64,000 bases of DNA from Nanobdellota archaeon (GCA_021162365.1 JAGGYW010000013.1:8960-72959); one strand, 5' to 3'. Shown: positions 2,247-59,291, counted from the stretch's first letter. The notes: a model not told the origin generated them from the sequence alone. A program made the numbers and translations.

Positions 2247-2368
2247 AATTTATAAAAAGAAGATTCCCTTTTTAATATTTACTATTTTTGAGTAACTACT
2301 ACCACGTAGGGTGTGAAAATTTCCTACAACCTTTTTAAGGGAGGAATGATTATGTCGTATAGGTAGAA
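2247..2368. promoter_or_regulatory. Divergent intergenic region between the two giant membrane-protein genes. AT-rich TATA-like boxes (tttataaaaaga, ttttaatattt), a GGAGG Shine-Dalgarno and a 4-codon uORF (atg tcg tat agg tag, 2352-2366) ending 2 nt before the 2369 start.
   Basis: Read directly from sequence. Archaeal BRE/TATA-like A/T hexamers. SD-like GGAGG at 2338-2342. Confidence 0.4.
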
Positions 2369-7078: not shown

Positions 7079-7542
7079 AAGATATTTTGAGATATCATTC
7101 ACACATCTTTTATGGTGATAAGAAAATTCATGAAGGTATTGTTAAGGAATTGAGTGAATTAGAGCACAGTCTAAAAGACAGATTAAGATGTGCTAAAATA
7201 AAATTTTACGGTGTTAGTTTGGCGGCGAGATGGCTAGAGAATGTGCTCCCTAAGGAGAAGAGTTCATATATCCCACGTGTAGCCTTATACTATATATTTG
7301 AAAGAGCACATGATAGAAAGATACCTATTTTATTGAGGAGCGAATCAGTATCTGAGTTTAGAGCCCCCACATCCAGAGACTTAAAAATAGTGAAAAGTGT
7401 ATTAGAGATAGACAAAGTGAGAGGATGGAAGTCTATAATAACTCGAATGGAAAAGATTGGTAAGGATATAGTTTCGACATCCTCTGGCGAATCGTTTGAT
7501 AAGGTTGTGGATCATTGGATAAAGGGGACCATTCCAATGTAA
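7051..7542 (+). CDS. Hypothetical protein (163 aa). Overlaps the 3' end of the giant ORF by 28 nt in another frame.
   Basis: ORF track. No recognisable motif. Confidence 0.45.
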   Translation: MGEFIARGVKDILRYHSHIFYGDKKIHEGIVKELSELEHSLKDRLRCAKIKFYGVSLAARWLENVLPKEKSSYIPRVALYYIFERAHDRKIPILLRSESVSEFRAPTSRDLKIVKSVLEIDKVRGWKSIITRMEKIGKDIVSTSSGESFDKVVDHWIKGTIPM

Positions 7543-7569
7543 TGTGTAGGCGATCTCTATCTTTGGTGG

Positions 7570-8067
7570 TTGAATATGGTAATATATTTATCTAATTCGG
7601 TTAAGGGTTTGCGGAAAGATAATTTCTTTAGAGATTTGGCTCGGTTAAGTGTGCCTATCCCATTTAAGTTGTTGGTATACCTACTTGACCTAAGGAGGTT
7701 TAGGAAGAATCTTCCTAAAGATGTGATGGCTAGGAGAGATTTGCTGGTAGATGCACTACTAGTTTCACTAGTTTCATATAAATTACGATTTTCATCTAAG
7801 GATAGTTTAAGTGGAGTAGAGATGTTATATTATTCTTTGGGAGAGTATGAAAATTATCTTAAGAGGATATTGAGAGGGATGTTTACTAATAGAAAGGACA
7901 TTACCATGTTGCCTGGTGATGTGGTGCAATCTCTAGCGAAGAAAATACTCAACCTTCAACTTAAGAAGGGCCTTTTCAAACTTAAAGATGGGAAGTTAAT
8001 TCCCACAAAGAAGTGGGAGAAGTTAAAGAAGGATTTAACTCCATTTATTGAGTATCTTATAGATTAA
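7570..8067 (+). CDS. Hypothetical protein (165 aa), basic and helical.
   Basis: ORF track. Co-oriented with and downstream of the giant ORF. Confidence 0.45.
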   Translation: MNMVIYLSNSVKGLRKDNFFRDLARLSVPIPFKLLVYLLDLRRFRKNLPKDVMARRDLLVDALLVSLVSYKLRFSSKDSLSGVEMLYYSLGEYENYLKRILRGMFTNRKDITMLPGDVVQSLAKKILNLQLKKGLFKLKDGKLIPTKKWEKLKKDLTPFIEYLID

Positions 8068-8121
8068 TATGAAATTTTTAAGTTAGGGTGGAAAGGTTAA
8101 GTACTAGTATCCCTAGTTGTA

Positions 8122-9225
8122 TTAGATAGCACATGTATAAATATCATTATCTTGAATCCACGCTATTCTTCTCCAAAATACAACCGGGTTTGTTTCGTTA
8201 GTTTTTGAGTTTGTTACTTGGATAATTTTTTTGTTGTGTATGTTATATGCGTAAATATCCCATTGATTGTTCTCGAGTTTTTGCCAAACTATGTAGTATG
8301 AAGAAACCCATGGGTTGATATCTGCGCTTTTGTCGCTTGTTATTCTAACTGTCTTGTTGGTAGATAAATCATGGTAGTATATGTTCCAGTTATTGTCTCT
8401 TTCTTGCCAGGCAATTATGTTTTTATATACCATTACATTCTTCATGTTGTTGCCTTTTTTGATTGTGTGTATGTCATCTTTATTAAATGTGTAATAACAC
8501 GAGAGGAAACAGATAACCCCATAATCAGTTGGGCGGTCATAACACGCTTCGGTTTTTTCAGCAGTTTTGTTTGATAGATTGTAATACTTCACCATAGTTT
8601 GATTATTAATACTTGAGATCCATGCTAGATTATTTTTGAATACATCAAGGGATAAGATACTATTTGGATTGTCTTTTATCTCATGTTTGCATTGGTTTTC
8701 AGAAAGGTTTAAGCAGAATATCTTATAAGATCCTACCCTATCTGAATAACATAAAATATTCTCCGATAGTTTTGGCGTACTTGCGCTTCTGGATGGTATA
8801 ACTTCACTTTTGTTAGTGACCATATCAAAGATTTTAATATCAAAGTCTGTTCTAAATAGTAAATATTCATCAAATATATCTCTCTCTTTTGATGACAGAT
8901 ACATCTCCAATTCTTTTGTTTTATTCTTGAGTGCATCATATAGGAACAAATGATAATTTGATCCCTCTTTTGTCTCCCAGACAATTTTATTCTCCCACAT
9001 GTTTAGGTTTACTTTTTTATTATGGTCATTAGTTATTTTGGTAATGTTACATAGTGATTCTGTCATGTTGTTTTCATTTGATTTGTTTATTTCAATTTTT
9101 GATGGTGTATTTGGTACATCGGTTGAGACATTCTCTACTGCTTCTTCTTTTACATTTTGGTGTGCCACACAGCCAAGAGAGAGTATAAGTGTGAATGTAA
9201 GAAAGAGCATTAGTATTTTTTTCAT
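8122..9225 (-). CDS. Secreted beta-propeller (TolB/PD40-like repeat) protein, probably a lipoprotein (signal peptide ending LSLGC).
   Basis: Repeated W-x-x...Y/W blades (KIVWETKEGSNYHLFLYD, NIIAWQERDNNWNIYYHDL, YYIVWQKLENNQWDIYAYN, RRIAWIQDNDIYTC). N-terminal hydrophobic signal with Cys. Confidence 0.55.
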   Translation of the reverse strand: MKKILMLFLTFTLILSLGCVAHQNVKEEAVENVSTDVPNTPSKIEINKSNENNMTESLCNITKITNDHNKKVNLNMWENKIVWETKEGSNYHLFLYDALKNKTKELEMYLSSKERDIFDEYLLFRTDFDIKIFDMVTNKSEVIPSRSASTPKLSENILCYSDRVGSYKIFCLNLSENQCKHEIKDNPNSILSLDVFKNNLAWISSINNQTMVKYYNLSNKTAEKTEACYDRPTDYGVICFLSCYYTFNKDDIHTIKKGNNMKNVMVYKNIIAWQERDNNWNIYYHDLSTNKTVRITSDKSADINPWVSSYYIVWQKLENNQWDIYAYNIHNKKIIQVTNSKTNETNPVVFWRRIAWIQDNDIYTCAI

Positions 9226-9309
9226 ATTTTATGAAACCCCTTCTGTCAATTTATATTTTACGTTCAATAGCAAAACATTTTTTAAGTAGTCATGGCTAGA
9301 TAAATTGGA

Positions 9310-10086
9310 ATGAAAAAATTATTTTTACTTTTAGTGGTAGTTTCCTTTGCGATTTTTATAGCTCCGAGTTTGGCGAATGCAGCTTGTAATGGAGTTACTA
9401 TTTGTGGAGTTAACTACACATGTGGTGTAAGTGATGGTGTATGTCCTGAAGACTTCTCTGCATGTGATAGATGTTCTACATGCGATCCCGACTGCGGACC
9501 TTGCGGTGGCGTTGGTGCAGCAGGCGGTGGAGGAGAGCAGACATATAGATGTCGAGCGGATTTTGAATCATATTATATATTTAGCCTTGAGGCAGGTGGG
9601 GTGTTTAGTACAATAGAAGATAGATATTGTACAGATTTACATTTGTATAAATTAAAGGTAAGCAATCCTATTAAGGATGCAACTACAAAGGTTGTTTTGA
9701 TTGAGCCCGAGGTAATTCCTCCGGAGGGGAAAGTATACAACTATTATAATTTCTCTGTGGATGATATGAAAAATTCTGATGTCGATGTAGTTGAATTTAG
9801 ATATAGGGTGCCTAATGAGTGGATAAGTAACAACAGTGTTGCTGAAGATAGAGTTGTGTTATACAAGCAAAGGAATGTGTTTTGGGAGAGGTTGGACAGC
9901 GAGAGATTAGGAAAAGACGAGCAATATAACTATTATTCTGCGAAGAGCAATTCCTTTGGAGTTTATGCTATTGTAGGTCATGGATTAGAGATTTGGGATG
10001 TACTTGAGAAGATTAGTTTATACTATTCTGGGGACATAGATTTCATAGAAGTGTTACATGTTATCGATATGTACTATTCATTCTAA
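9310..10086 (+). CDS. Secreted cysteine-rich protein. Signal peptide, Cys-rich N-module (CNGVTICGVNYTCGVSDGVCPEDFSACDRCSTCDPDCGPCGG), Gly-rich linker, ~170-aa C-domain.
   Basis: ORF track and manual inspection. Confidence 0.55.
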   Translation: MKKLFLLLVVVSFAIFIAPSLANAACNGVTICGVNYTCGVSDGVCPEDFSACDRCSTCDPDCGPCGGVGAAGGGGEQTYRCRADFESYYIFSLEAGGVFSTIEDRYCTDLHLYKLKVSNPIKDATTKVVLIEPEVIPPEGKVYNYYNFSVDDMKNSDVDVVEFRYRVPNEWISNNSVAEDRVVLYKQRNVFWERLDSERLGKDEQYNYYSAKSNSFGVYAIVGHGLEIWDVLEKISLYYSGDIDFIEVLHVIDMYYSF

Positions 10087-10126
10087 TTGACAACCTTTAA
10101 ATTCTAATTCTTCTTTAATTTATTCG

Positions 10127-11422
10127 GTGAGTTGGATGGCAAAAGGATATTTACATTACATAAATCTTGGCTACAAGCCAAAAAAAGACGAGCTTATAGC
10201 TGTATACAAGTTTAAACCAAGGAAAGGGGTGGGTAAGAAAGAAGCAGCGGGAGCAATTGCAGCAGAATCCTCTACAGGAACTTGGACAACACTTTCTACA
10301 ATGACTTTGAAGAGAATGACAAAGATAGGTGCGAAGGTTTACAAAATGTATGGGGACTATGCAGAGATAGCATACCCGCTTGATTTATTTGAATTGGGTA
10401 ATATGCCTGAGATTCTTTCTTCTATTGCTGGAAATATTTTTGGTATGAAGGAAGTTGACACTATAAGGCTTGTTGATGTCAAGTGGCCAACGAAGTTAAA
10501 GAATTCTTTTAAGGGACCGCAGTTTGGTATAAAAGGTGTGAGGAAACTTTTAGGTGTAAAAAAGCGCCCATTAGTTGGCACTATTGTAAAGCCAAAACTT
10601 GGATTGACTTCCAAGGAGCATGCCAAAGTTGCTTATGAAGCGTGGGTTGGTGGATTAGACATAGTAAAAGATGATGAGAATTTAACATCACAGCCATTTA
10701 ACAAGTTTAAGAAAAGAGTTGAAGAAACATTGAAGCTAAAATGGAAGGCAGAAAAAGAAACAGGCGAAAGAAAAATGTATATGGCAAATGTAACAGCAGA
10801 AACAAGAGAGATGCTAAAGCGTGCAAAGTTCCTTAAGGATATGGGAAATGAATATGCAATGGTTGACATTCTTACTGTTGGGTTTGCTGGATTGCAAACT
10901 TTACGTGATGAAATGGATAAACTAAAGCTTGTTTTGCATGGCCACCGTGCTATGCATGCTGCACTTACAAGGAATCCGAATCATGGCATATCTATGTCTG
11001 TGCTTGCAGAGATTTCAAGATTGATTGGAACAGACCAGCTACATGTTGGTACCGCGGTTGGTAAGATGGAAGGCAAGAAGAAAGATATCATCTATATAGT
11101 AGATGATGTTGAAGGGAAGTTCATAAGGAAGAGGGGGCACATGCTAGCAGAGAACTGGGGAAAGATAAAACCTATGTTTGCGGTTTGTTCTGGTGGATTG
11201 CATCCAGGATTAGTTCCACCACTAGTTAAGATGTTTGGCGAGGACATAATTATTCAAGCTGGTGGAGGGGTGCATGGACATCCGAGAGGAACAAGAAAGG
11301 GTGCAACTGCAATGAGGCAAGCAGTAGATGCAACTCTGAGAGGAGTCCCACTTAGAGAATATGCAAAGACACACAAGGAGTTAAAAGAAGCAATTGAAAA
11401 GTGGGGAGTTTACAAGGGGTGA
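10127..11422 (+). CDS. rbcL: Ribulose-1,5-bisphosphate carboxylase/oxygenase, archaeal form III large subunit.
   Basis: Family signatures GAIAAESSTGTWTT, GGLDIVKDDENLTSQPF, HGHRAMHAALTR. Length 431 aa. Confidence 0.9.
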   Translation: MSWMAKGYLHYINLGYKPKKDELIAVYKFKPRKGVGKKEAAGAIAAESSTGTWTTLSTMTLKRMTKIGAKVYKMYGDYAEIAYPLDLFELGNMPEILSSIAGNIFGMKEVDTIRLVDVKWPTKLKNSFKGPQFGIKGVRKLLGVKKRPLVGTIVKPKLGLTSKEHAKVAYEAWVGGLDIVKDDENLTSQPFNKFKKRVEETLKLKWKAEKETGERKMYMANVTAETREMLKRAKFLKDMGNEYAMVDILTVGFAGLQTLRDEMDKLKLVLHGHRAMHAALTRNPNHGISMSVLAEISRLIGTDQLHVGTAVGKMEGKKKDIIYIVDDVEGKFIRKRGHMLAENWGKIKPMFAVCSGGLHPGLVPPLVKMFGEDIIIQAGGGVHGHPRGTRKGATAMRQAVDATLRGVPLREYAKTHKELKEAIEKWGVYKG

Positions 11423-12920: not shown

Positions 12921-15588
12921 TATGATGGGAGAAAGTGCATGGCATACACTAAAGATAAAAGAAATATTTAGGGTGCTCGAGACAAGTGAGAATGGATTAA
13001 CCAGTGAGGAAGCAGAAAGAAGGCTTTCGGAGTTTGGCCCAAATGAGTTAACTAAAGAAAAAAAGAAAACCATACTCTCAATTTTTTTAAATCAGTTCAA
13101 GTCGTTTTTGATAATAATTTTAATAATTGCTGCGCTTATCTCGTTTGCAGTTGGTGAGACACTCAACTCAATTGTTATTTTAATCATACTTCTTATTAAC
13201 GCTTTTCTTGGATTCTTTCAAGAGTACAAGGCAGAAAAAGCTGTGGAAGCACTAAAGAAAATGACTGCCCCCCGAGCTCTTGTTTTACGTGATGGTGTTA
13301 AAAAAGAAATTTTTTCGCGAGAGCTTGTTCCCGGCGATATTGTTTATCTGGAGGAAGGGAAGCAGGTGCCGGCTGATGTGAGAATTATTGAGTCTCAAAA
13401 CTTAAAGGTGGATGAAAGCATTCTAACAGGAGAATCCTTGCCGGTTCTAAAAGAAGTTTGCACTCTTAAGAAGGAAGTTCCTCTTTCTGAGATGAAAAAT
13501 ATGGCTTTCTTTGGCACATATGTTACATATGGCCATGGTAAAGGTGTTGTAGTAAGAACAGGAATGGAAACAGAGATGGGTAAAATCGCTGAGCTTGTTC
13601 AGGAAACAATAGAAGAAGAAACCCCACTTAAGAGAAAATTAAACAATTTAGCTAAGCAATTGGGTTTAATTGTTCTGTTCATAATTGGACTTGTTTTCTT
13701 GCTAAATATCTATGTTCATTCTAAAGAATTAATTGAAATTTTCATTTTAGCAATTGCCATGGCAATATCTGCTGTCCCAGAAGGACTGCCTATGGTTGTA
13801 ACTTTAACATTGGCTTTGGGTATGCAGGCAATGGCAAAACAAAACGCAATTGTTAGAAAACTAATGGCTGTTGAGACGTTGGGCGCCACAACTGTAATTT
13901 GCTCGGATAAAACAGGGACCTTAACAAAAAATGAGATGACTGTGACTGAAATATATGCTAACGGTAAATTCATCGAAGTAACTGGGGCAGGATATAAACC
14001 AATTGGTAAGTTTTTACTTGATGGGAAAGAGATAAATCCATCATCAGATAAGACGTTATCTCGCCTTCTTGAGATTGGGGCACTTTGCAATAATGCTGAA
14101 ATGATTAAAGATGATGGATGGAGAGTAATTGGTGATCCCACAGAGGGAGCATTAATATCTCTTGCTGAGAAGGGAGGATTTTCGCCGGAGAAGTTAAAAA
14201 AGCAAGCCAAGTTTATCACAGAAGTCCCCTTTTCTTCTGAAAGAAAGATGATGAGTGTTGCTTATTCTAATAAGAAAGTCATTTCATATGTTAAGGGAGC
14301 TCCTGAAAAAATTATTGATAGATGCAATTTCATCTTAGAGAATGGCAAAGTAAAGAAAATTACCCCTGCAATCAAGAAACAACTCATTAAAACATCTAAT
14401 AAAATGGCTGGGAAGCCACTTAGGGTTCTTGCATTTGCATATAAGGAACTTCCAAAGAGAAAGAAATACACATTCAAGGATATGGAATATGGATTGACTT
14501 TTGTTGGATTTGTTGGTATGATTGATCCTCCACGAGAGGGCGTTAAAGACGCTATCAGAAAATGTAACGAAGCTGGAATAAGAGTGATAATGATAACTGG
14601 GGACCACAAGACAACAGCAGTTGCAATTGCAAAAGAGATTGGTATAATGAAAGAAGGTGATATTTGCATTACCGGTATGGAACTAGAAGGAATGTCTCTT
14701 AAAGAGTTAGAGGAAGTTGTTGACAAAGTTTCTGTCTTTGCGAGGGTGTCTCCTGAGCATAAAGTTAAGATTTTACAGGCGTTGGATTCCAAAGGTGAAA
14801 CAGTTGCAATGACTGGCGATGGGGTTAATGATGCTCCTGCTCTTAAGCGGGCGCATATAGGGGTTGCTATGGGTATAAAGGGAACGGATGTTGCGAAACA
14901 AGCAAGCGATATGATTTTGGAAGATGATAACTTTTCAACAATTGTAAAGGCAGTGGAAAGCGGCAGAAGAATTTATGATAATATAAAGAAGTTTGTTAGG
15001 TTTGAACTGGCGGCTAACTTTGATGAGATTGCAGTTATCTCTTTTGCAGCGATATCTGGCCTTCCACTTCCGCTTTTGCCACTTCAGCTCTTGTGGATAA
15101 ATCTTGTTACGGATACAATTCCTGCCACCACATTAGCTATCGATCCGCCTGAAAAAGATATAATGAGACGACCGCCGAGAAAGAGAAATGAAAATATGAT
15201 TTTGGATATGCTACCTTATCTTTTGGCAACAATAGTGGTATGTACTTTTGTTGATACATGGTTGTTCTTGTGGGGACTGCAATATGGAATTCAAAAGGCA
15301 AGGACCCTTGTATTTACAGGTACAGTTATGTTCCAGCTTTTCTTGGTCTTCAATATACGTTCTGAAAGAAGGCCTTTCCTAAGAACAAATCCATTTGAGA
15401 ATAAGTATTTAGTGCTTGGTGTTTTTGCATCTTTCTTATTACAACTCGCAGTAGTTTATCTTCCACCACTTCAGGCAATATTTGGGACATTCCCATTAGA
15501 TTTGATAGATTGGGTTGTTGTAATGCTCTTTGCATTAATTGCCCTTGCAATTTCGCCAATAATATTTAGGTGGAGAAAGTCTACATGA
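12913..15588 (+). CDS. P-type cation-transporting ATPase (type II, Ca2+/cation pump-like).
   Basis: DKTGTLT phosphorylation motif, TGDGVNDAPAL hinge motif, ~10 TM helices. 891 aa. Confidence 0.9.
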   Translation: MSDMMGESAWHTLKIKEIFRVLETSENGLTSEEAERRLSEFGPNELTKEKKKTILSIFLNQFKSFLIIILIIAALISFAVGETLNSIVILIILLINAFLGFFQEYKAEKAVEALKKMTAPRALVLRDGVKKEIFSRELVPGDIVYLEEGKQVPADVRIIESQNLKVDESILTGESLPVLKEVCTLKKEVPLSEMKNMAFFGTYVTYGHGKGVVVRTGMETEMGKIAELVQETIEEETPLKRKLNNLAKQLGLIVLFIIGLVFLLNIYVHSKELIEIFILAIAMAISAVPEGLPMVVTLTLALGMQAMAKQNAIVRKLMAVETLGATTVICSDKTGTLTKNEMTVTEIYANGKFIEVTGAGYKPIGKFLLDGKEINPSSDKTLSRLLEIGALCNNAEMIKDDGWRVIGDPTEGALISLAEKGGFSPEKLKKQAKFITEVPFSSERKMMSVAYSNKKVISYVKGAPEKIIDRCNFILENGKVKKITPAIKKQLIKTSNKMAGKPLRVLAFAYKELPKRKKYTFKDMEYGLTFVGFVGMIDPPREGVKDAIRKCNEAGIRVIMITGDHKTTAVAIAKEIGIMKEGDICITGMELEGMSLKELEEVVDKVSVFARVSPEHKVKILQALDSKGETVAMTGDGVNDAPALKRAHIGVAMGIKGTDVAKQASDMILEDDNFSTIVKAVESGRRIYDNIKKFVRFELAANFDEIAVISFAAISGLPLPLLPLQLLWINLVTDTIPATTLAIDPPEKDIMRRPPRKRNENMILDMLPYLLATIVVCTFVDTWLFLWGLQYGIQKARTLVFTGTVMFQLFLVFNIRSERRPFLRTNPFENKYLVLGVFASFLLQLAVVYLPPLQAIFGTFPLDLIDWVVVMLFALIALAISPIIFRWRKST

Positions 15589-27213: not shown

Positions 27214-28437
27214 TCAGCGGAGTTTGTATTTTTGTTCTAAATCAGCAATTTCGTTTTTGATATCCTCTATTTTTTCGTGCACCTTTTTAAGCTCATTTAG
27301 CTTTGCTCCGAAGTTTTTTCCCTTTCGGGTTTTCATTTTTTTGAGCTTGCTTTCTATATCGTTAGATTTTGAATATAACCCATTCAGCTTTGCCTTAAGG
27401 CGCGTCAACTTTTGCTTGGCTTTTCTTTTTTCCTCTAATGGTATTATTTCTTCCTTTGTCAAATAATACATAAATAAGGAGATTCCAACGACTACAAGCA
27501 TCCAACAGCAGATGCTGAGCTGCTGGCTTTCCATTATTTCGTTAGGGAAGAATATAACTTTTGGAGGTTCGCTACTAGTTGCATTATTTTTTTCTCCGTA
27601 AATTATGAATTCTGAGAAGCCCATTGTTTTAAAGTAGAAGTAAACATTGCCCTCATCCTCACTTATTCTATATGGAATTATTCTGTTTACACCATTTGAA
27701 ATTTCAATTATGCCTATTTTTGAATCGTTTATGTTATTAGAATTGATCCATTCCTTTGGTATTTTGAAATGAATAACTGCATTTTCGTATTGTTCTTTAT
27801 AGATATCTTCTAAGTCAACAGACAAGCAATCAAAAACAATTCCTGAAGATAGAGAATAATCCTTGTTGCATCTTTGAATGTTTATTGTACCAGATGATAT
27901 TTGTTGAGATGTATATATTGTTAATTTTTGAAAGTTTTCTAATATATCCAATCCAATTGTGAGGTTTGTGTTTGGTGGAACTGGAAGAATGTTCATGCTT
28001 TGGTTTCCAACTTTTATTACTATAAATGAATTTCCACCACCACTCGACATGCTTTTAAACGATATTCTGACACCAAATTCTTTAATTTGTTCTACATATC
28101 CCACTTTCTTGGCGGTTATCTTTGTAAAGTACACACCTGTTGTATCAAATTTTTTCTTGAATATAAAGGCAGAATTCGAAGGACTATATGCCATCTGGTA
28201 TGTTTTCCCATCTACAGAAATTGTAACATTTGCATCCACAATGTCAGTACCATTTTCATCTTCATAATCTGCTATAAACATAACTTCTTGATTTACCCTT
28301 GGGTTTTCTGGAGTATAGCTAGTTTTTAGTGTTGTATTTACTAGCGGTGGAACAGTTAAAGATGCACCAAGGGACGCAGCGCTAGCTACAGAAATCACTA
28401 AAAGTACTAGAGTTAAAGCTAAAGTTGCCTTTCTCAT
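27214..28437 (-). CDS. Single-pass membrane protein (407 aa). Signal peptide, ~300-aa extracellular beta-rich domain, TM (ICCWMLVVVGISLFMYYL), cytoplasmic coiled-coil tail.
   Basis: ORF track and manual topology reading. Confidence 0.55.
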   Translation of the reverse strand: MRKATLALTLVLLVISVASAASLGASLTVPPLVNTTLKTSYTPENPRVNQEVMFIADYEDENGTDIVDANVTISVDGKTYQMAYSPSNSAFIFKKKFDTTGVYFTKITAKKVGYVEQIKEFGVRISFKSMSSGGGNSFIVIKVGNQSMNILPVPPNTNLTIGLDILENFQKLTIYTSQQISSGTINIQRCNKDYSLSSGIVFDCLSVDLEDIYKEQYENAVIHFKIPKEWINSNNINDSKIGIIEISNGVNRIIPYRISEDEGNVYFYFKTMGFSEFIIYGEKNNATSSEPPKVIFFPNEIMESQQLSICCWMLVVVGISLFMYYLTKEEIIPLEEKRKAKQKLTRLKAKLNGLYSKSNDIESKLKKMKTRKGKNFGAKLNELKKVHEKIEDIKNEIADLEQKYKLR

Positions 28438-28462
28438 AATTAAAAAATAAAAAATTAAGGGT

Positions 28463-28957
28463 TTAACAGTTCATTGTTATTGTAATTGTTTGTGTGTATG
28501 TTGCTGGGTATTGTGCGTTTGGTACTCCTACTCCAAAGTACAATGTGAACGAGCTACCTGCTGCAAGGCTTGCGCCTGCGGGTATTGCTGTGTCTGTAGT
28601 TGTAAGTGGTGTTCCGCTGGTAGAATAGTCAAATGAGGATGTACTCCATTTTGTTTGTCCAACAGCCATTGTGTGTCCTGCACCATCATCCCAGTTTGTA
28701 CCTTTTATTGTTGTGTTTGTTGTAGGTGTGTTACCTCCATTTGTAACAGTTACTTGTTGGTTTGTGCTCCCTGTATCAGTTCCTGGTGTAACGCTGTTAA
28801 AGTTAATCGTGTTTGTTGATAGATTTACTGTACAAATTGCTGGGACTGTTACTGTTGCTGTAATTGTGTCGCTATCTGTGTATGCTTTTGCTATTCCCAC
28901 GAATGCAATTCCTGCTGCTAGCAAGATTACAAACGCAGCAATTATTTTCGCATCCAT
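28463..28957 (-). CDS. Small secreted protein (164 aa) consisting of a signal peptide plus a ~130-aa Thr/Asn-rich beta domain. That domain is paralogous to the C-terminal domain of the adjacent 1325-aa protein and resembles a SCPU/Csu-pilin-like fold (both end ...YTQTITITMNC).
   Basis: Direct alignment of the two protein sequences from the ORF track. The fold assignment is a weak inference. Confidence 0.55.
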   Translation of the reverse strand: MDAKIIAAFVILLAAGIAFVGIAKAYTDSDTITATVTVPAICTVNLSTNTINFNSVTPGTDTGSTNQQVTVTNGGNTPTTNTTIKGTNWDDGAGHTMAVGQTKWSTSSFDYSTSGTPLTTTDTAIPAGASLAAGSSFTLYFGVGVPNAQYPATYTQTITITMNC

Positions 28958-29439
28958 CTCTTCTTACCTCCTTTTAGCTTATAATAATATATGGAAAGGA
29001 ATATTAAAAATATTACTATACCCCCAAAAAATAGCCATTTTGAGGGGAATTCTTGTTTTTTTATAACTTCAAACTTATAATTCTTTTCTAGTTCAACATT
29101 GAAGACAATTGTGCCTGTGACATTTTGAAGCGCCCTTGCTGTTATTTTGCCGCTGAAATTTCCAGTTTCGTTAGCTATTGCTGTGACTTTCATTTCTTGT
29201 TGGCTGTGCGGTAGTATTGTTCCATTAGTGGGTTCAACTACGATATTACCTGAATATGTAATTATCTCAAATTCTATTGGTTCATTGCCTGTATTTACAA
29301 GCCAATATGTTAATGTTTTGTTTTCTCCAAGGGTTATTTCACCGAAGTCGAGCACGCCCGCAGATTGTCCGAAGTCGGCGTTTGCAATTGCAGTTGCTAC
29401 GAAAATCAATCCAATTAAAATGATTGTTTTTCCTTTCAT
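28942..29439 (-). CDS. Secreted Ig-like (PapD-like/ASH/DUF1573-like) domain protein with a C-terminal TM anchor and a basic tail.
   Basis: LDFGEITLGENKTLTYWLVNTGNEPIEFEI pattern. C-terminal KWLFFGGIVIFLIFLSIYYYKLKGGKKRWMRK. Confidence 0.5.
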   Translation of the reverse strand: MKGKTIILIGLIFVATAIANADFGQSAGVLDFGEITLGENKTLTYWLVNTGNEPIEFEIITYSGNIVVEPTNGTILPHSQQEMKVTAIANETGNFSGKITARALQNVTGTIVFNVELEKNYKFEVIKKQEFPSKWLFFGGIVIFLIFLSIYYYKLKGGKKRWMRK

Positions 29440-29448
29440 TTTTTCACC

Positions 29449-32400
29449 TCAACAGTTCATGGTTATTGTGATAGTTTGAGTATAACTACTTGCGGCTTGG
29501 TATTGTGGTACTCCTACTCCAAAGTAGGTTGTTATCGAATTTCCTGCTCCAAGATTTGTTGTTATCGCAGCATCTGTTGTTGTCAAGTCAGTTCCGCTTC
29601 CGTATGTAAATGCACTTGTACTCCATTCTGTGTTCCCAACTGCGAATGTGTTTCCTCCTCCATCACTCCAATCTGTTCCTCTAATGGTAACATTTGTTGC
29701 TGTTCCACTTCCAGAGTTGGTAATAGTAACATTTTGGTTTGTGCTTCCAGTATTTGTTCCTGGATTCACACTTCCAAAACTAATTGTGTTTGTGGATAGA
29801 GAAACTACACATGTTTGTGTGTTTAAAATTGTTAGATTTGTGAGTGGGTCATAATAATTGCTATATGTATTTGTTCCGTCCACATCTATTGCCCTGCATC
29901 TCAAATCAACATTTGTTTGGTCAGGGATGTTGGATACGTTCCATACAAATGTGCTTCCTTCGGTATGGTTCCCTATAGTTCTCCATTTTTTAACTAATCC
30001 CCAAGCACATTGGCTACATGATTGGCAGGATGTTTGGCTTGTGTATGTGTCACAATTTAAGTTTCCATTACAAGATTGGGGTACACTTTTTATGCCTGTG
30101 ATGTTCACACAGTCTAGGTAAGCATCATCTCTATTTCCCGAAAACTCTGTTTCAAATCTAATTGTAACCGAGTCATCAAATGTGCAATCGCTTGGAGTAA
30201 TTGTTACACACTGTTCATCTGTGCATCCATTTAGCCATTGGCCTTCCGTACCTTTTTCGTTTGGGCAGTAGGTCCACACTATGTTTCCATCACATTTTAG
30301 GTCTATACACTCTCCCGCCTCTATGCTTGTATAATATGCGGACCAGCTTATGGTTACGTTGGTATATCCTGTAAAGTTGAATGACTTTTCTGTATATGAG
30401 GTAGTGGTATCGTCTTGAAGGTGCCATGAGTAACTTCCTCCACTACTCCCATCATCTTGACAATTACTTGTTACACTACTCCAGTCCGAATCTGATCCTG
30501 GATCAGTCCATCCGTCTGGTCCCGATTCCCAGCCAGTATAGTAAATATTTGTCTTAGATGTTCCTCCTCCCCAGCTGCATCCTGCTGATGAACAATTACT
30601 ACAACTGCTCGAATCGCTGCATGCACTACAGCTTCCATTGTTGTAGCAGGAGTAATCACTATAATTTGCTTCTATAACGTACGTAATTGTATCTCCGTCC
30701 GGATCAGTGGAGCCGGAGCAAGTTATATTTACGCTGTTAGAGAAAGTTCTGTTACAGCTTCCTCCGTCACAACTTATGTTGGTAGGGGTGGTTGGTGGGC
30801 CCTCTTCTCCAAATAGATATTGGGTAGTTGAGTCTCTGCTCTGACTAATTGGGAATATAGCTCTATAGGCACTGCCGTCTTGTTCAAATTGAATCTGTGT
30901 GGCACTTAAGATTTGAGTCCAAATTCCATTTGAGTATTTGTATACCATACCGTTTGCATGGGATAAGTTGGTTACTTCTATGTATAGTTTTTCTGTGCCT
31001 TGGTCCCAATTTGAGTTTCCTGTAATATTGAATTTTATGTCTTTACCTGTATTTCTCTGTATTTTGTATATAAATTCTTTTGAGTCAAAACCAGTTATGG
31101 TACAATTTTCTACAGCAGTTATTGTTGCGGGATTCTCATGAAGAGAGTATATATTTTTTACGGTTGCATTTGAATTTCCGTCATAAAGGACAGTTATTGT
31201 AAATATATCATCATAGTTTTGTATGGAATTTGCGGAATACCAGAATTGATCGAAATAATCACTTCCATTCGTTTCTATATCTATTGTTGAGCTGTCTTGA
31301 TCTGTGGCTCCACTTGGCATTGCCTTTATTATCTTTCCGAATGCTAAATCGTTTGTAGTTGATCCATACCAACTAACCCACGAATTACTTGATTGATCAA
31401 ATACGTCATACACAGAATTTGAAGTTGAGGTTGTTGTGTCTGTCGGTCCCGCTTTGCTTCCGCCAGTATAATGTAAGCCATATGAATCATATCCACTTGT
31501 AGTATTTGTGTCATTTACCACGGTTAAAATTCGTAACCCATCATTGTATGTTCCAGCAAAGTTTATTGTTTTTATTCTTCCTACATAATAGTCATTATAG
31601 AAGTACCAATCTATGTATATCTGGCCCGACCAGTTTACCTCTACAGCGACTCTATAAGAGCCATTTTCTAAAATTGTTATATCTGTTGGAGTTACTTGGT
31701 TCGAGATTATATCGCTTATTGGTACGGTGATAAGTGGTTTGTATACTAATGCTACATAATCTGCTATGTAGCCTTGAGATAATTCTACGTTTGGATCGTA
31801 TTCTTTTGACCAGAAGTCTTTAACGTACCCCCATGATGTATAGGATGTGTTGTTACTGATACATACTTTGTATTTGTTTGTTTCCACAGTTATACATGTT
31901 CCATCTGCACTTACTACATATGCTGGGTCATTTGCAGATATATGGAGGGTGTAATTCTGTCCAGGTGTAACGTCAGCAATTTTTGTCCAGCTTCCTTCAC
32001 ATTCTCTTGAGCTAAAATTCCAATCTTTACATTTGTATATGAAGTTCCCCTTTGGTGTTATGGTTACATTCCCTTCAACAAATTTAACCTTTGGATCTAT
32101 TGCAAAAGATTGAACAGCATCTTGGATATTTGATGGAATATCTAAATCTAAGTCAACTATCTCATTTAATGTGGATTGTATCTCCACATTCTTTAGAGTT
32201 ATTGATTTAACAATGTGGTTTCTTGGAATTAATTTGATAGTATAGTTCCCCTTCTTTACGCTGATTGGAGTTCCTTCGGAGATAGCAATTAGCTTGTTAT
32301 TTTGGAATACTTTCGCAGTTGTTGGTATGTCTTTATTTTCAAAGTCCTTAATTTTTGGTGTGATTACTATGTACATCCTACCAAAATATGACGCGCTCAT

Positions 32401-33426
32401 ATTTGTTTCGTTTTTTGGGAGTTGGAATACAAATACCTCTGATTGATTTCCAACTTGAAGTTCAAAGCGGCTTCCATCCCATTTGTAAATGGTGAGAGTT
32501 ATGTTCTCATTAGGTGGTGCTGGGTATTTACTAAACCCATATGTTACGTTACCTATGATGTAGAATGGTTCCTCTTTTGTAGAGTTATGTGAAAAAACTA
32601 TTACAAAATTATCATTTTTCCAAGAAGTAGACAAAATTTTTACATCAAAGTTTTCGTCATCTTTTATCTTTTCATAATATTTTTCACTGCTCATGTTTTG
32701 GATCGCAGAAACATTTTCTTCTTGTACCTTTACAAATGAATACTGAATTTTGAATATCTTTACTTTTCCATTTCCATGTAATTCAAAGTAGAGTTTATAT
32801 GAAGAATAATTTAACTTTTTATCAAGTAGGTTACATGTTTCTTCGCAGACATAGTTAAGGGGCACAACTCTTGTAGCTTGTGTTGGGGTTTCTCCTCCAG
32901 TTTCGCCTTCTACACCCCCTTTTTCTTTTTGAGGGAGTGCCTTTTTTACATCTTTTATAAGGAATGCCGTCACACCTTTCATGGCAAGGAAGTCTTTCGT
33001 GTTTGCAATTAGGTATCTGTTTCCATCTTTATCCTCGAGGTATATTTGCGCGTCTCCGTCCCCTTCATATACTCCGGAAATTTTTATGGAACTTAAATAG
33101 CCCTTCACTTTGTTTTGTGGTTCCCAATTTACATATTTTGAATTTTCTACAATGATGTTTACATCATCTGTGAAGGAGATAATGTTGCTTTCGGATGTTA
33201 CGAATCCTTCAATTGATGGGGATATGTGTGTTACAAGTGTGTATGATACAATTGAGAGTAGGATGAAGACAATGAAGGGAAGAAATGGTCCCGCCCTCTT
33301 CCCTTTAAGTAACCTTTCTCTTATCATTCCATCAGTTACTTTCTTTTTGATGCCAATTATTTCGAGGGACTTTATCGTTTTTGGGTTTTGAAGATTAACT
33401 TTATACAGTGTTTTCTTGCCTTCCAC
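29449..33426 (-). CDS. Giant (1325 aa by track) surface protein. N-terminal signal-anchor (most plausible start ATG at 33327: MIRERLLKGKRAGPFLPFIVFILLSIV...). Huge Thr/Ser/Asn-rich extracellular region with Cys-rich modules. C-terminal domain is homologous to the 164-aa protein at 28463-28957.
   Basis: ORF track (the track start is GTG at 33426). See finding on the in-frame wHTH-like extension up to 33588. Confidence 0.7.
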   Translation of the reverse strand: MEGKKTLYKVNLQNPKTIKSLEIIGIKKKVTDGMIRERLLKGKRAGPFLPFIVFILLSIVSYTLVTHISPSIEGFVTSESNIISFTDDVNIIVENSKYVNWEPQNKVKGYLSSIKISGVYEGDGDAQIYLEDKDGNRYLIANTKDFLAMKGVTAFLIKDVKKALPQKEKGGVEGETGGETPTQATRVVPLNYVCEETCNLLDKKLNYSSYKLYFELHGNGKVKIFKIQYSFVKVQEENVSAIQNMSSEKYYEKIKDDENFDVKILSTSWKNDNFVIVFSHNSTKEEPFYIIGNVTYGFSKYPAPPNENITLTIYKWDGSRFELQVGNQSEVFVFQLPKNETNMSASYFGRMYIVITPKIKDFENKDIPTTAKVFQNNKLIAISEGTPISVKKGNYTIKLIPRNHIVKSITLKNVEIQSTLNEIVDLDLDIPSNIQDAVQSFAIDPKVKFVEGNVTITPKGNFIYKCKDWNFSSRECEGSWTKIADVTPGQNYTLHISANDPAYVVSADGTCITVETNKYKVCISNNTSYTSWGYVKDFWSKEYDPNVELSQGYIADYVALVYKPLITVPISDIISNQVTPTDITILENGSYRVAVEVNWSGQIYIDWYFYNDYYVGRIKTINFAGTYNDGLRILTVVNDTNTTSGYDSYGLHYTGGSKAGPTDTTTSTSNSVYDVFDQSSNSWVSWYGSTTNDLAFGKIIKAMPSGATDQDSSTIDIETNGSDYFDQFWYSANSIQNYDDIFTITVLYDGNSNATVKNIYSLHENPATITAVENCTITGFDSKEFIYKIQRNTGKDIKFNITGNSNWDQGTEKLYIEVTNLSHANGMVYKYSNGIWTQILSATQIQFEQDGSAYRAIFPISQSRDSTTQYLFGEEGPPTTPTNISCDGGSCNRTFSNSVNITCSGSTDPDGDTITYVIEANYSDYSCYNNGSCSACSDSSSCSNCSSAGCSWGGGTSKTNIYYTGWESGPDGWTDPGSDSDWSSVTSNCQDDGSSGGSYSWHLQDDTTTSYTEKSFNFTGYTNVTISWSAYYTSIEAGECIDLKCDGNIVWTYCPNEKGTEGQWLNGCTDEQCVTITPSDCTFDDSVTIRFETEFSGNRDDAYLDCVNITGIKSVPQSCNGNLNCDTYTSQTSCQSCSQCAWGLVKKWRTIGNHTEGSTFVWNVSNIPDQTNVDLRCRAIDVDGTNTYSNYYDPLTNLTILNTQTCVVSLSTNTISFGSVNPGTNTGSTNQNVTITNSGSGTATNVTIRGTDWSDGGGNTFAVGNTEWSTSAFTYGSGTDLTTTDAAITTNLGAGNSITTYFGVGVPQYQAASSYTQTITITMNC

Positions 33427-33625
33427 TTTTCTAATTAGATGATTTTGTTTGACTAAGTCATTTAAATGTCTGTGCGCAGGTTCGTATGATATCTTGAGTT
33501 TATCTTGTATCTCTTTGATAGAATACCATCTATTTGGATCACTGAATGCTCTTAATACTTCTAAGTAACTGTTTATTTTCTTTATAGTACCACCAATTTA
33601 TAGGAGAAAATAAGCGCTTAAAAAA

Positions 33626-33644
33626 CTATTGGATTATCCAATAG
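33626..33644. promoter_or_regulatory. 19-bp perfect palindrome ctattggat-t-atccaatag upstream of the giant surface-protein gene. Candidate operator for a winged-helix regulator.
   Basis: Seen in sequence. Adjacent TTTTTTAA TATA-like element on the minus strand. Confidence 0.4.
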
Positions 33645-33789: not shown

Positions 33790-34047
33790 AGGGCCCGGTG
33801 GGACTTCCAAGCACTCGCCAAGAGTTTCTCTCTTAGCGCAGGTTCTCTCTTTTCAAAGAGAGAAAGTGCTTTCGAACCCACGACCCCTTGCTTGCCACGC
33901 TCCCTCTTTCTTTCCCGAGGGTTTCTTTCTCGGGAGAAAGAAAGGCTCTTAGGAGGCAAGTGCTCTATCCAAGCTTTGCCACGCACCCATTCTGCCAGCG
34001 CTTTTCCGTGCACGCTTTTTTAAAGGGTGCGTTTGAGCTACGGGCCC
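33790..34047 (-). tRNA. Candidate tRNA-Arg (anticodon CCT) with multiple introns: D-loop, anticodon loop, T-loop 59/60. The variable region is atypically long (possible extra intron), so the model is tentative.
   Basis: Manual parse. GGGCCCG-TA-GCTC...CTTGGATA-GAGC-A-CTTGC-CTCCTAA[intron]GCAAG-...-GTGGG-TTCGAA[intron]T-CCCAC-CGGGCCC-T. Introns contain gtttctttctcgggagaaagaaagg-type hairpins. Confidence 0.45.
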
Positions 34048-59107: not shown

Positions 59108-59291
59108 TTAATTCACCCGAACATGTTTCGCTTTCACGAAACATGTCTTGTTAGATAATATTTGCAATTTTGATTCCTTTTTAAATCTTTTGCTTTTGGT
59201 TTCAATATGCAGTGGTTCGTTCACACAATATGTTGTTATACCACATGTTGAGCATAACAATTTAAATACCTTTTATGTGTTACAGTTTCTC

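Follow-up and report, generated by a model that had tools for sequence, protein, structure and literature searches.

Several archaeal filaments are already described in which donor strands are used. Threads (Saci_0406), bundling pili (AbpA, which is TasA-like) and cannulae (CanA) are Sec-dependent, chaperone-free and held together by N-terminal donor-strand complementation. The tafi system of Haloarcula hispanica comprises TafC, a multi-domain tip/initiator protein, and TafA, the small major subunit, whose donor strand is N-terminal, and has no usher (PMC11821415), and its pilin-like TafF protein, which has a membrane-spanning C-terminus, is proposed to be both anchor and terminator of the fibre (PMC11821415). 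Sec-dependent tafi-like clusters are found in Thermococcales and Archaeoglobus, with a DUF1102 subunit in non-halophiles (PMC11821415). In Methanothermobacter thermautotrophicus, the mth58–mth61 operon encodes the Mth60 fimbriae, built from a ~15 kDa Sec-secreted self-assembling fimbrin (PMC10370314, PMC11821415); the neighbouring gene product, Mth59, is the proposed chaperone, AlphaFold models of Mth60 predict donor-strand exchange and the fimbriae have a role in cell–cell connection (PMC10370314, PMC11821415). The original prediction for the locus studied here, that it encodes a fibre or adhesin assembly system of a kind not described for archaea, is outdated in that last respect, as all the filaments named above are archaeal and of the donor-strand type, in the case of Mth60 according to models.

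The gene block occupies positions 27214–33426 on the minus strand of a 64,000 nt stretch of a Nanoarchaeota MAG (referred to as the window), and the ORF list verified the four closely spaced ORFs that had been predicted there, namely the giant, p165, p164 and p407 (Table 1). The giant and p165 genes are separated by 9 nt, those of p165 and p164 overlap by 16 nt and a gap of 25 nt lies between p164 and p407; both flanks of the block are plus-strand genes. Elsewhere in the window, alignment and in-silico splicing identified a three-intron tRNA-Arg in a G+C-rich island, and Rfam scans of this island returned no match.

Table 1. Features of the gene block and their coordinates in the window
Feature	Position	Strand	Basis or remark
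Giant 'head' gene	29449..33597	(-)	ORF list; stop-to-stop ORF 29452-33597; frame conserved in L001, P0017
Giant, annotated ORF	29449-33426	(-)	1325 aa from GTG
p165: signal peptide, single ASH/PapD-like Ig, C-terminal TM, basic tail	28942..29439	(-)	PF22544; Hydin ASH profile match
p164: Sec-type signal peptide, donor-type N-strand, shared domain	28463..28957	(-)	Candidate polymerising subunit
p164 candidate donor strand TITATVTVP, residues 31-39	28841..28867	(-)	+19.9 bits, motif matrix
p164 shared domain, Cys42 to Cys164	28466..28834	(-)	BLASTP, tblastn
Giant shared domain, residues 1206-1325, Cys to terminal Cys	29452..29811	(-)	BLASTP, tblastn
Giant N-terminal extension, 57 codons, winged-helix HTH-like	33427..33597	(-)	65-71% identical to two orthologs
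Giant hydrophobic segment PFLPFIVFILLSIVSYTLV, ~residues 47-68 of annotated protein	33223..33288	(-)	Translation; conserved in L001, P0017
Giant variable central region, ~residues 565-1148	29983..31734	(-)	BLASTP vs orthologs
p407	27214..28437	(-)	TIGR04213 match
Perfect 9-1-9 palindrome CTATTGGAT-N-ATCCAATAG	33626..33644	.	Single occurrence in window

By analogy, the closest described system is tafi: as read from the genes, the giant, p164 and p165 would parallel TafC, TafA and TafF respectively, and a small transcription regulator associated with the tafi cluster is a further point of likeness. However, p164 has no DUF1102 or TafA match (for the family, DUF1102 was not among the matches at E≤10 (A1) or E≤0.1 (A2)) and the block has no TafD-type signal peptidase or TafG (DUF5305). 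Annotations of the neighbouring genes included no peptidase or DUF5305, no peptidase, ATPase or usher lies adjacent to the block, and no usher-like gene was found in the block or in syntenic loci. The locus differs from tafi also in its predicted ASH/PapD-like sandwich with a terminal Cys–Cys clamp, in its DPANN hosts, in heads that reach 3421 aa in the family and in gene conversion between head and subunit. With the Mth60 operon it shares, by description, a four-gene archaeal layout and a small Sec-secreted (here putative) fimbrin, but no giant head is reported there, and both the taxon and the pseudomurein cell wall differ; with threads, bundling pili and cannulae it would share the character of an archaeal extracellular donor-strand filament, as we propose for p164.

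The shared domain and its family

The C-terminus of the giant and the mature part of p164 had been predicted to be colinear duplicates of ~130 aa. BLASTP aligned p164 residues 42–164 with giant residues 1206–1325 (80 identities in 123 positions, 65%; E 7e-44), and both segments start with C-x-V-x-L-S-T-N-T-I-x-F and end with YTQTITITMNC, which upholds the duplication with a corrected length of 120–123 aa. A tblastn search of the whole window placed the domain at these two positions only. A 'giant + 163 + 165 aa' gene set at 2369–8067 was considered as a second copy and rejected, as the large protein there contains an extended helical stretch on the cytoplasmic side and lacks the shared domain.

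The domain belongs to an unannotated family of 1133 representative clusters (E≤1e-3), the members of which are currently annotated as hypothetical. Stand-alone proteins of ~155 aa are the commonest form (~96 of the 159 proteins retrieved), and the domain also occurs in tandems of ~320 aa and as the C-terminal domain of proteins of up to 3421 aa, ending at the protein's last residue, a Cys, in 61 of 67 multi-domain members. The first and last Cys of the domain are each at least 90% conserved in the family, and in the first domains of tandems both were lost jointly in five of 23 cases and never singly; the pair is predicted from sequence to form a disulfide that clamps the domain. Gene-conversion tracts of 65–75 identical codons connect the head domain with the subunit in four relatives. 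PGF-CTERM/archaeosortase sorting was considered for the domain and dropped, since it ends in Cys and has neither a TM segment nor a PGF motif; an exosortase gene lies ~3 kb from the family locus in L007.

The AlphaFold model of p164 (pLDDT 90.1) predicts a PapD/ASH-like Ig sandwich, not demonstrably of SCPU type, and the modelled domain looks complete, with seven strands in the sandwich and the C-terminal strand supplied by the domain itself. Its best structural neighbours are non-pilin, i.e. GH123-N and the CEP192/Hydin ASH domains, with SCPU pilins ranking below them. By sequence, comparison with PDB chains gave noise only, SCPU (PF05229) did not match p164 and its matches within the family were all sub-threshold (three of 12, best E 0.08; 13 of 95, best E 0.005). 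The TasA/AbpA and TasA/camelysin (Peptidase_M73) family provided neither a sequence match nor a strong structural match. ASH/PapD-like/MSP Ig domains (Hydin, CEP192, CFAP65/74, VAP) are intracellular ciliary or centrosomal domains and the GH123 N-domain is an enzyme accessory; neither is known to polymerise by strand donation. The p164 domain differs from those of the intracellular Hydin/CEP192 type in being secreted and, as proposed below, strand-donating.

Donor-type N-strands and the proposed fibre

In stand-alone subunits the first Cys is preceded by a conserved N-strand of alternating pattern, [VI]-T-A-[ST]-V-T-V-P. Median donor-motif scores were 11.2 bits (leave-one-out) for stand-alone proteins and 10.0 bits for the second domains of tandems, as against −5.1 bits for other large proteins (p = 5e-9). 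In the block itself p164 scores +19.9 bits and the corresponding pre-Cys segment of the giant, LTNLTILNT, −12.7 bits. The same difference between head and subunit was seen in 10/10 loci of the first set and replicated in nine of ten metagenome loci (p = 0.004), and in many head proteins poly-Thr or Cys-rich linkers occupy the position of the N-strand. It is this N-terminal strand, and not the C-terminal T-x-T-I-T strand named in the original prediction, that is the candidate donor. As the 7-strand sandwich seems complete, the donor would be an extra strand at the edge and would not stand in for an absent G strand, as it does in chaperone–usher pilins, and the giant domain, having no donor-type N-strand, would be 'acceptor-only'. 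In the AlphaFold model of a tandem protein (P0018), only the inter-domain copy of the strand becomes β, and the preceding last strand grows from 6 to 12 residues; as judged from DSSP, this asymmetry suggests the strand with which the inter-domain copy would pair. In the p164 monomer model the N-strand has a pLDDT of ~94 but is unpaired, and it may pack in cis.

With moderate confidence, we read the block as encoding a Sec-dependent donor-strand surface fibre that is built without an usher. In such a fibre p164 would be the polymerising subunit: cleavage of its signal peptide would expose the N-strand TITATVTVP ahead of the disulfide-clamped PapD/ASH-like Ig domain, and the N-strand of each p164 would pair with the edge strand at the C-terminus of the domain before it. 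The giant, whose C-terminal domain has no donor strand and should therefore only accept one, would form the acceptor end and hence one defined terminus of the fibre, with its cassette-like, Cys-rich and sequon-rich centre as the likely binding (adhesin) part. p165 would be an obligate third partner, acting either as a TafF-style anchor/terminator or as a membrane-tethered chaperone, and p407 an accessory protein of the surface that is specific to the clade. The originally predicted scheme, in which a large head is combined with a strand-exchange subunit, gains indirect support from the motif dichotomy and the tandem model, and the assignment to the SCPU/Csu type does not. Points against a fibre are the non-pilin structural neighbours, the apparently complete sandwich, the unpaired N-strand of the p164 monomer model, the lack of a donor-like motif in p165, the N-terminal membrane anchoring that the giant seems to have in this clade, and the lack of an adjacent peptidase, ATPase or usher.

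Subunits of this kind might instead form a planar envelope structure, an arrangement that we consider improbable, in which p164-type proteins make up an abundant sheath or S-layer-associated two-dimensional array, heads insert into it by the same domain and p165 ties it to the membrane. The family is abundant and consists mostly of small secreted proteins, gene conversion keeps head domain and subunit alike, as a single shared lattice would need, and DPANN S-layer proteins are Ig-rich and without homology to known ones, according to a Nanobdella preprint. However, with one donor strand of fixed direction and one acceptor edge, assembly should be linear and not planar, and the existence of tandems suggests that units are chained head to tail. 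Single Ig domains of 14 kDa are also atypical of S-layer proteins, which counts against a lattice.

The Ig/TM partner and the conserved gene set

In p165 a TM helix and a basic tail come after a single Ig domain of ~100 aa. It scored above the Pfam gathering thresholds for PF22544 (HYDIN/VesB/CFA65-like Ig; 36.6 vs 25.5) and PF07610 (DUF1573; 27.0 vs 26.1) and slightly under that for ASH (23.9 vs 27), and a profile of its orthologs matched Hydin (E 7.6e-34, repeats summed) and the HYDIN PapD-like domain 2e6j (E 0.008) in the PDB. The two matches above gathering and the C-terminal TM bear out the predicted PapD-like/ASH Ig domain with a membrane anchor. Among the SCPU, PapD and DUF1573 signatures that had been suggested for the module, DUF1573 was found on p165, SCPU stayed under threshold and PapD_N and PapD_C were not among the Pfam matches of p165 at E≤1.

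Chaperone–usher pili, the archaic Csu/CupE (SCPU) pili among them, have two-domain tip adhesins (FimH, CsuE, CfaE). The acquisition of such a bacterial system by an archaeon, with p164 as the SCPU pilin and p165 as the PapD chaperone, is very improbable and already contradicted on its defining features: no SCPU match reaches the Pfam threshold, ASH and GH123-N domains are nearer structural neighbours than SCPU pilins, and usher and outer membrane are both absent. Furthermore, p165 is a single-domain, TM-anchored protein that matches ASH/HYDIN and not PapD_N, as opposed to a soluble two-domain periplasmic PapD chaperone, and the shared domain appears to keep its own C-terminal strand. The distribution is likewise archaeal: a degenerate C-terminal motif scan of a genome collection, by which related loci were located, matched archaeal MAGs in seven of seven cases (Nanoarchaeota, Micrarchaeota and unclassified DPANN MAGs).

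Of 29 archaeal loci left after de-replication, 25 have a gene for an Ig/TM protein (signal peptide, ASH-Ig and TM) beside that of a family member, as do 19 of the 20 with visible flanks, the usual order being head protein, Ig/TM protein and stand-alone subunit. This adjacency is kept at ~30% identity (L007, L018–L020) and is found also in Micrarchaeota (L016) and, despite different flanks, at the P0026 locus. The genes thus co-occur in related genomes, as the original prediction expected, which points to a conserved functional module, and p165 is a candidate membrane anchor/terminator or tethered chaperone.

Such adjacency would suit a docking module too, a reading that we regard as rather unlikely, in which the shared domain serves as a C-terminal tag for surface anchoring that binds p165 in cohesin–dockerin style, heads and stand-alone copies alike dock on p165 and no fibre is formed; the N-strand would then be the first strand of the domain, supplied in head proteins by the preceding domain or linker. 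The strictly C-terminal position of the domain is consistent with docking, as are the complete-looking fold and the high pLDDT of the N-strand in the p164 monomer, a weak profile match between the p165 and p164 families across the A–C strands (hhalign 59%, E 9e-5) and the lack of a donor motif in p165 (a motif search of p165 and the giant body found no conserved or significant donor-like strand). A docking tag, however, gives no role to cargo-less stand-alone copies, the commonest form, or to tandems, and it leaves unexplained the poly-Thr/Cys-rich linkers at the N-strand position of many heads, the one-sided pairing that the tandem model suggests and the presence of one strand-less and one strand-bearing protein per locus.

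The fourth protein, p407, comprises a signal peptide, an Ig-like N-region, a PGF-pre-PGF domain (TIGR04213, residues 195–281; 46.3 bits vs a cut-off of 28), a TM segment and a cytoplasmic helical Lys/Glu-rich tail. The PGF-pre-PGF domain is also present in two other proteins of the window. As a PGF-CTERM archaeosortase substrate p407 does not qualify, since no PGF motif precedes its TM and its helical tail is ~70 aa long and not short and basic. It is present in close relatives only and lies outside the conserved core of the module to which it had been assigned; it is a lineage-specific accessory.

The giant head protein and the biology of the module

The reading frame of the giant is open and conserved for 57 codons beyond the annotated GTG, up to 33597. 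This extension contains no in-frame ATG, GTG or TTG, and near-cognate ATT/ATA codons only; the upstream frame of P0017 begins with a canonical Met. Programmed frameshifting was considered for the absent start codon, L001 having an ATG in another frame with an A-run after it, and was not adopted because the window has no slippery site. Profile matches of the extension were coherent but sub-threshold (HTH_24, TBPIP-wH, ArsR/SmtB, Lrs14, Sta1 and Rrf2). The hydrophobic segment PFLPFIVFILLSIVSYTLV would act as a signal anchor or else form the h-region of a signal peptide, and in the source clade the giant seems to be N-terminally membrane-anchored (wHTH plus TM), an arrangement that is not easily reconciled with a 'distal tip' role. 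The palindrome lies ~30 nt upstream of the open frame with a T-run after it, is unique in the window (0.04 expected) and conserved in L001 and L002, and carries a terminator-like flag as well; it is possibly an operator or a terminator.

In BLASTP comparisons with its orthologs, only residues 18–563 (~40% identity) and 1149–1325 (48–56%) of the giant aligned, and the Cys-rich, sequon-rich region between them (~565–1148) had no detectable similarity to the centres of the orthologs. The body of the giant gave no Pfam, NCBIfam or PDB match, also when an ortholog profile or excised segments were used; Big_7/Big_13 domains occur in its orthologs and are absent from the window protein.

The N-terminal architecture bears on a further reading, which in our judgement is unlikely, of a pilus pathway of DPANN's own, where p165 would be both chaperone and anchor of a Sec-secreted donor-strand fibre and, in the present Nanoarchaeota clade, the giant would also be a ToxR-like one-component sensor. 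The latter would run from a cytoplasmic winged helix through one TM helix to a variable adhesin-like ectodomain of ~1250 aa, and with such an architecture host contact could therefore couple directly to transcription, perhaps via the palindrome upstream of the giant's gene. If this DPANN-pathway reading were true, the link between the PapD and ASH folds could be informative about where the chaperones of bacterial chaperone–usher systems and the eukaryotic ASH/MSP domains came from.

What is new at this locus is an unannotated domain family, which merits a Pfam/NCBIfam model, and a distinct gene architecture to set beside those of the archaeal donor-strand filaments. Gene conversion between head and subunit, together with the cassette-like head centre, suggests that the binding part diversifies fast while the scaffold for assembly is conserved, and such diversification of the binding part is the pattern expected of host-range determinants. 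Attachment to host cells is the way of life of DPANN archaea, and little is known of how they achieve it. A role of this module in symbiont–host attachment is plausible. The module is widespread in DPANN and combines a hypervariable and at times giant surface protein with a subunit predicted to self-assemble and a putative membrane anchor; the donor-strand fibre that we propose is in this way a concrete and testable candidate for an attachment fibre.

Gene block and shared-domain family

The original prediction described four minus-strand genes in which the C-terminal domain of a giant protein (1325 aa) is duplicated as a stand-alone subunit, p164, and both coordinates and BLASTP bear this out: residues 42–164 of p164, which is identical with NCBI protein J7K73_01730 from a Nanoarchaeota MAG, align with giant residues 1206–1325 at 65% identity (80/123, E 7e-44). 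Both copies of this shared domain start at a Cys (C-x-V-x-L-S-T-N-T-I-x-F) and end at a terminal Cys (YTQTITITMNC), and a whole-window search found no third copy. The giant gene lies 9 nt from that of p165, an Ig/TM protein, which overlaps the p164 gene by 16 nt, and 25 nt separate p164 from p407, a PGF-pre-PGF protein; the genes to either side of the block are on the plus strand. A further two large surface proteins of the window, one of 1569 aa whose N-terminal ectodomain is joined by a TM segment to a very long helical region in the cytoplasm, and one of 838 aa with a PGF-pre-PGF domain, a TM anchor and, as judged by eye, a candidate beta-propeller, are unrelated to the shared domain.

Coordinates of features in the window and in related loci (L numbers)
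Sequence	Feature	Position	Strand
Window	giant ORF	29449-33426	minus
Window	p165 ORF	28942-29439	minus
Window	p164 ORF	28463-28957	minus
Window	p407 ORF	27214-28437	minus
Window	1569-aa surface protein	2369-7078	plus
Window	838-aa surface protein	59148-61664	plus
Window	57-codon extension of giant frame	33427-33597	minus
Window	palindrome	33626-33644	
Window	tRNA-Arg(CCU) gene	33791-34047	minus
Window	tRNA-Arg exons	about 34047-34033, 33973-33950, 33892-33871, 33803-33791	minus
L001	identical-codon locus	6060-10489	
L004	identical-codon locus	3-3228	
L005	identical-codon locus	1-4127	
L006	identical-codon locus	3-1925	
L001	tRNA-Arg ortholog	5507-5699	
L001	wHTH–S_layer_C gene	14516-15538	
L004	wHTH–S_layer_C gene	7307-8242	
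L018	ParA/MinD-like ATPase gene	1542-2342	
L019	ParA/MinD-like ATPase gene	2406-3203	
L007	exosortase/archaeosortase gene	5178-5741	

The shared domain defines a large family that lacks annotation: p164 has no significant match in Pfam or NCBIfam, members give only sub-threshold matches (NPCBM_assoc, SCPU, DUF4402 and GH123_N), and a profile search of 1.84 billion representatives returned 1133 proteins at E≤1e-3, of which 382 reached E≤1e-10. Some consist of the domain alone behind a signal peptide (~155 aa), some are tandems (~320 aa), and in others, of up to 3421 aa, it is one part of a larger protein. Of 67 multi-domain members, 61 have the domain as their extreme C-terminus, with a Cys as the final residue. 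Conservation reaches at least 90% for the first Cys and likewise for the last, and in domain 1 of the tandems both are missing in 5/23 and a single one in 0/23, which argues for a disulfide clamp between them. An exact-motif scan, with each GTDB species represented by one genome, found archaeal MAGs only (Nanoarchaeota, the DPANN kingdom ‘Nanobdellati’, Micrarchaeota and unclassified archaea). The weakly related protein P0091 (789 aa) repeats the domain's first half, in partial form, six times internally and has a C-terminal TM anchor in place of the terminal Cys, suggesting that ‘x-FG-x-V-x-x-G...N-x-G-N’ Ig repeats form a superfamily wider than the C-terminal family.

Structural neighbours of the shared domain were the GH123 N-terminal domain (8.0), CEP192 ASH (7.5), Hydin (7.2), TasA-like TLP-2 (7.0), FimI (6.8), CsuA/B (5.9), the CupE SCPU pilin (5.5) and AbpA (5.3), a list that makes the modelled fold a PapD/ASH-type Ig sandwich. 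The SCPU/Csu-type domain proposed originally was not upheld, as CsuA/B and CupE rank below GH123-N, ASH and Hydin and the SCPU profile matches stay below threshold; the module also failed the tests that define SCPU/chaperone-usher systems. A weak profile–profile match (59%, E 9e-5) connects the p165 family with the p164 family at their first strands.

Conservation of the module and evolution of its copies

In close relatives the order giant, Ig/TM, subunit, p407 is kept, as are the flanking genes, and at the P0026 locus it is kept with different flanking genes. Module elements return at ~30% identity in L018 (a 1333-aa giant with the domain at its end, two stand-alone copies and Ig/TM), L019 (a 1224-aa LamG-containing giant, subunit and Ig/TM), and L020 and L007 (head, Ig/TM and subunit). 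When the Ig/TM profile was broadened and 22 extra metagenome loci were added, with de-replication at 95% to 29 locus clusters, the expected co-occurrence was found: the Ig/TM gene adjoins a family member in 25/29 clusters, three of the four exceptions lying at contig edges, and in 19/20 of those with visible flanks. As the p407-type gene occurs only in the close clade, the conserved core is head, Ig/TM and subunit, and the proposed four-gene module holds for these three alone. Directly upstream of the head gene in L018 and L019 are genes for a ParA/MinD-like ATPase and a ~680–700 aa surface protein, neither with a counterpart in the window. About 3 kb downstream of the L007 module there is an EpsH-family exosortase/archaeosortase gene; a link is unlikely because the shared domain lacks a matching sorting signal.

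In p165 a signal peptide is followed by a single Ig domain, a TM helix towards the C-terminus and a basic tail. The protein scores above the Pfam threshold both for the HYDIN/VesB/CFA65-like Ig domain and for DUF1573, and its ortholog profile matches ASH (‘PapD-like’) domains of Hydin and CFAP in the PDB, in agreement with the membrane-anchored PapD-like/ASH fold predicted for it. p407 combines a TM segment and a helical tail in the cytoplasm with a PGF-pre-PGF domain that exceeds the NCBIfam cut-off; since two further window proteins carry this domain, it is a common anchor module in the source organism.

Head domain and subunit are mutual closest relatives in 8/11 genomes, with up to 88% identity, above ortholog identities. 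In four loci (L001, L004, L005 and L006) the giant C-terminal domain and the stand-alone gene share 65–75 consecutive identical codons, and the tract boundaries differ among them, a sign that the copies underwent gene conversion recently; no tract of this kind is present in the window pair.

Giant protein and its upstream region

The giant protein, with 32 Cys and 38 N-glycosylation sequons, aligns with orthologs only at 18–563 (~40% identity) and 1149–1325 (48–56%). Its central ~600 aa have no detectable ortholog counterpart or database match, and orthologs have Big_7/Big_13 domains there, a pattern suggestive of a variable binding region between conserved ends. Its frame stays open for 57 codons upstream of the annotated GTG, an extension 65–71% identical with L001 and P0017, with coherent sub-threshold winged-helix matches (ArsR/SmtB, Lrs14, Sta1, HTH_24 and Rrf2). 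P0017 has a canonical Met start, at a position that is TAA in the window, where the extension contains no in-frame ATG, GTG or TTG; either a near-cognate start is used (ATT 33597 or ATA 33585) or the domain is no longer translated here. The head of the close clade is thus probably a wHTH, TM and ectodomain protein, unlike distant heads, which have plain signal peptides. The syntenic relatives L001 and L004 have, between GlmS and NrdR, a gene that joins another wHTH (HTH_20/HTH_5) to an S_layer_C domain, and the window lacks a gene at this position; wHTH fusion to extracellular domains may be a recurrent architecture in the lineage.

Between the giant gene and a tRNA gene lies a perfect 9-1-9 palindrome, CTATTGGAT-N-ATCCAATAG, unique in the window (0.04 expected), kept in L001 and L002, with T6 and a TATA-like TATAAAT after it; it may serve either as a terminator or as an operator bound by the wHTH domain. 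The tRNA-Arg(CCU) gene, overlooked by both ARAGORN and Rfam, is interrupted by three introns, in the D-loop, in the anticodon loop (37/38) and in the T-loop (59/60), forms an island of 50–54% G+C against a 36% background, and yields a perfect cloverleaf on in-silico splicing; its L001 ortholog has two introns only, none in the D-loop.

Proposed strand donation and relation to known filaments

Stand-alone proteins carry a conserved alternating strand immediately ahead of the first Cys (consensus [VI]-T-A-[ST]-V-T-V-P; V/I/L/F/M 76–91% at −10, −6 and −4, Ala 64% at −8). By position matrix, median scores were 11.2 bits for stand-alone proteins (leave-one-out), 10.0 for tandem second domains and −5.1 for C-terminal domains of other large proteins (stand-alone against other large, p = 5e-9), which frequently have poly-Thr or Cys-rich linkers at this position. 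Within loci, proteins opening the module all score low (−12.7 to +4.8) and partner subunits high (+12 to +21), with −12.7 for the giant and +19.9 for p164 in the window; the first protein of L007 is a small copy in which the Cys directly follows the signal peptide. Ten independent metagenome loci gave medians of −8.2 and +13.2 respectively (p = 0.004), the sole exception having the motif offset by one residue.

In the predicted structure of the natural tandem P0018 (pLDDT 84.3), the N-strand of domain 1 is coil (pLDDT ~63) and the homologous inter-domain strand, 185–193, is a confident beta strand one turn past the last strand of domain 1, which spans 12 residues there; its counterparts in the p164 monomer and domain 2 have only six paired residues each. 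From the motif split and this model we infer that a unit most likely adds its N-strand to the C-terminal edge of the unit before it, and that head proteins only accept a strand. The fold looks complete without a donor strand, and docking without polymerisation is a viable, if less probable, alternative. The unpaired N-strand of the p164 monomer is nonetheless modelled with high pLDDT, which would allow a closed cis state.

The original claim that such fibres were not described for archaea does not hold, since donor-strand assembly is established for threads, bundling pili, cannulae and tafi, and is predicted for Mth60 fimbriae (PMC10370314, PMC11821415). In tafi, TafC is the tip, TafA the shaft, and TafF, with an Ig-like domain on a membrane-spanning C-terminus, is proposed to accept a TafA strand and anchor the fibre (PMC11821415). 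As a motif search found no donor-like motif in p165, a TafF-like acceptor/anchor and a tethered chaperone are its two live options. Tafi are the closest analogue in logic of a module known here from genes and models, from which we infer polymerisation, polarity, the p165 role and an attachment function. The module differs, however, in its domain family (no DUF1102 match), its lack of TafD and TafG genes, its terminal Cys clamp, giant heads, DPANN hosts and gene conversion.
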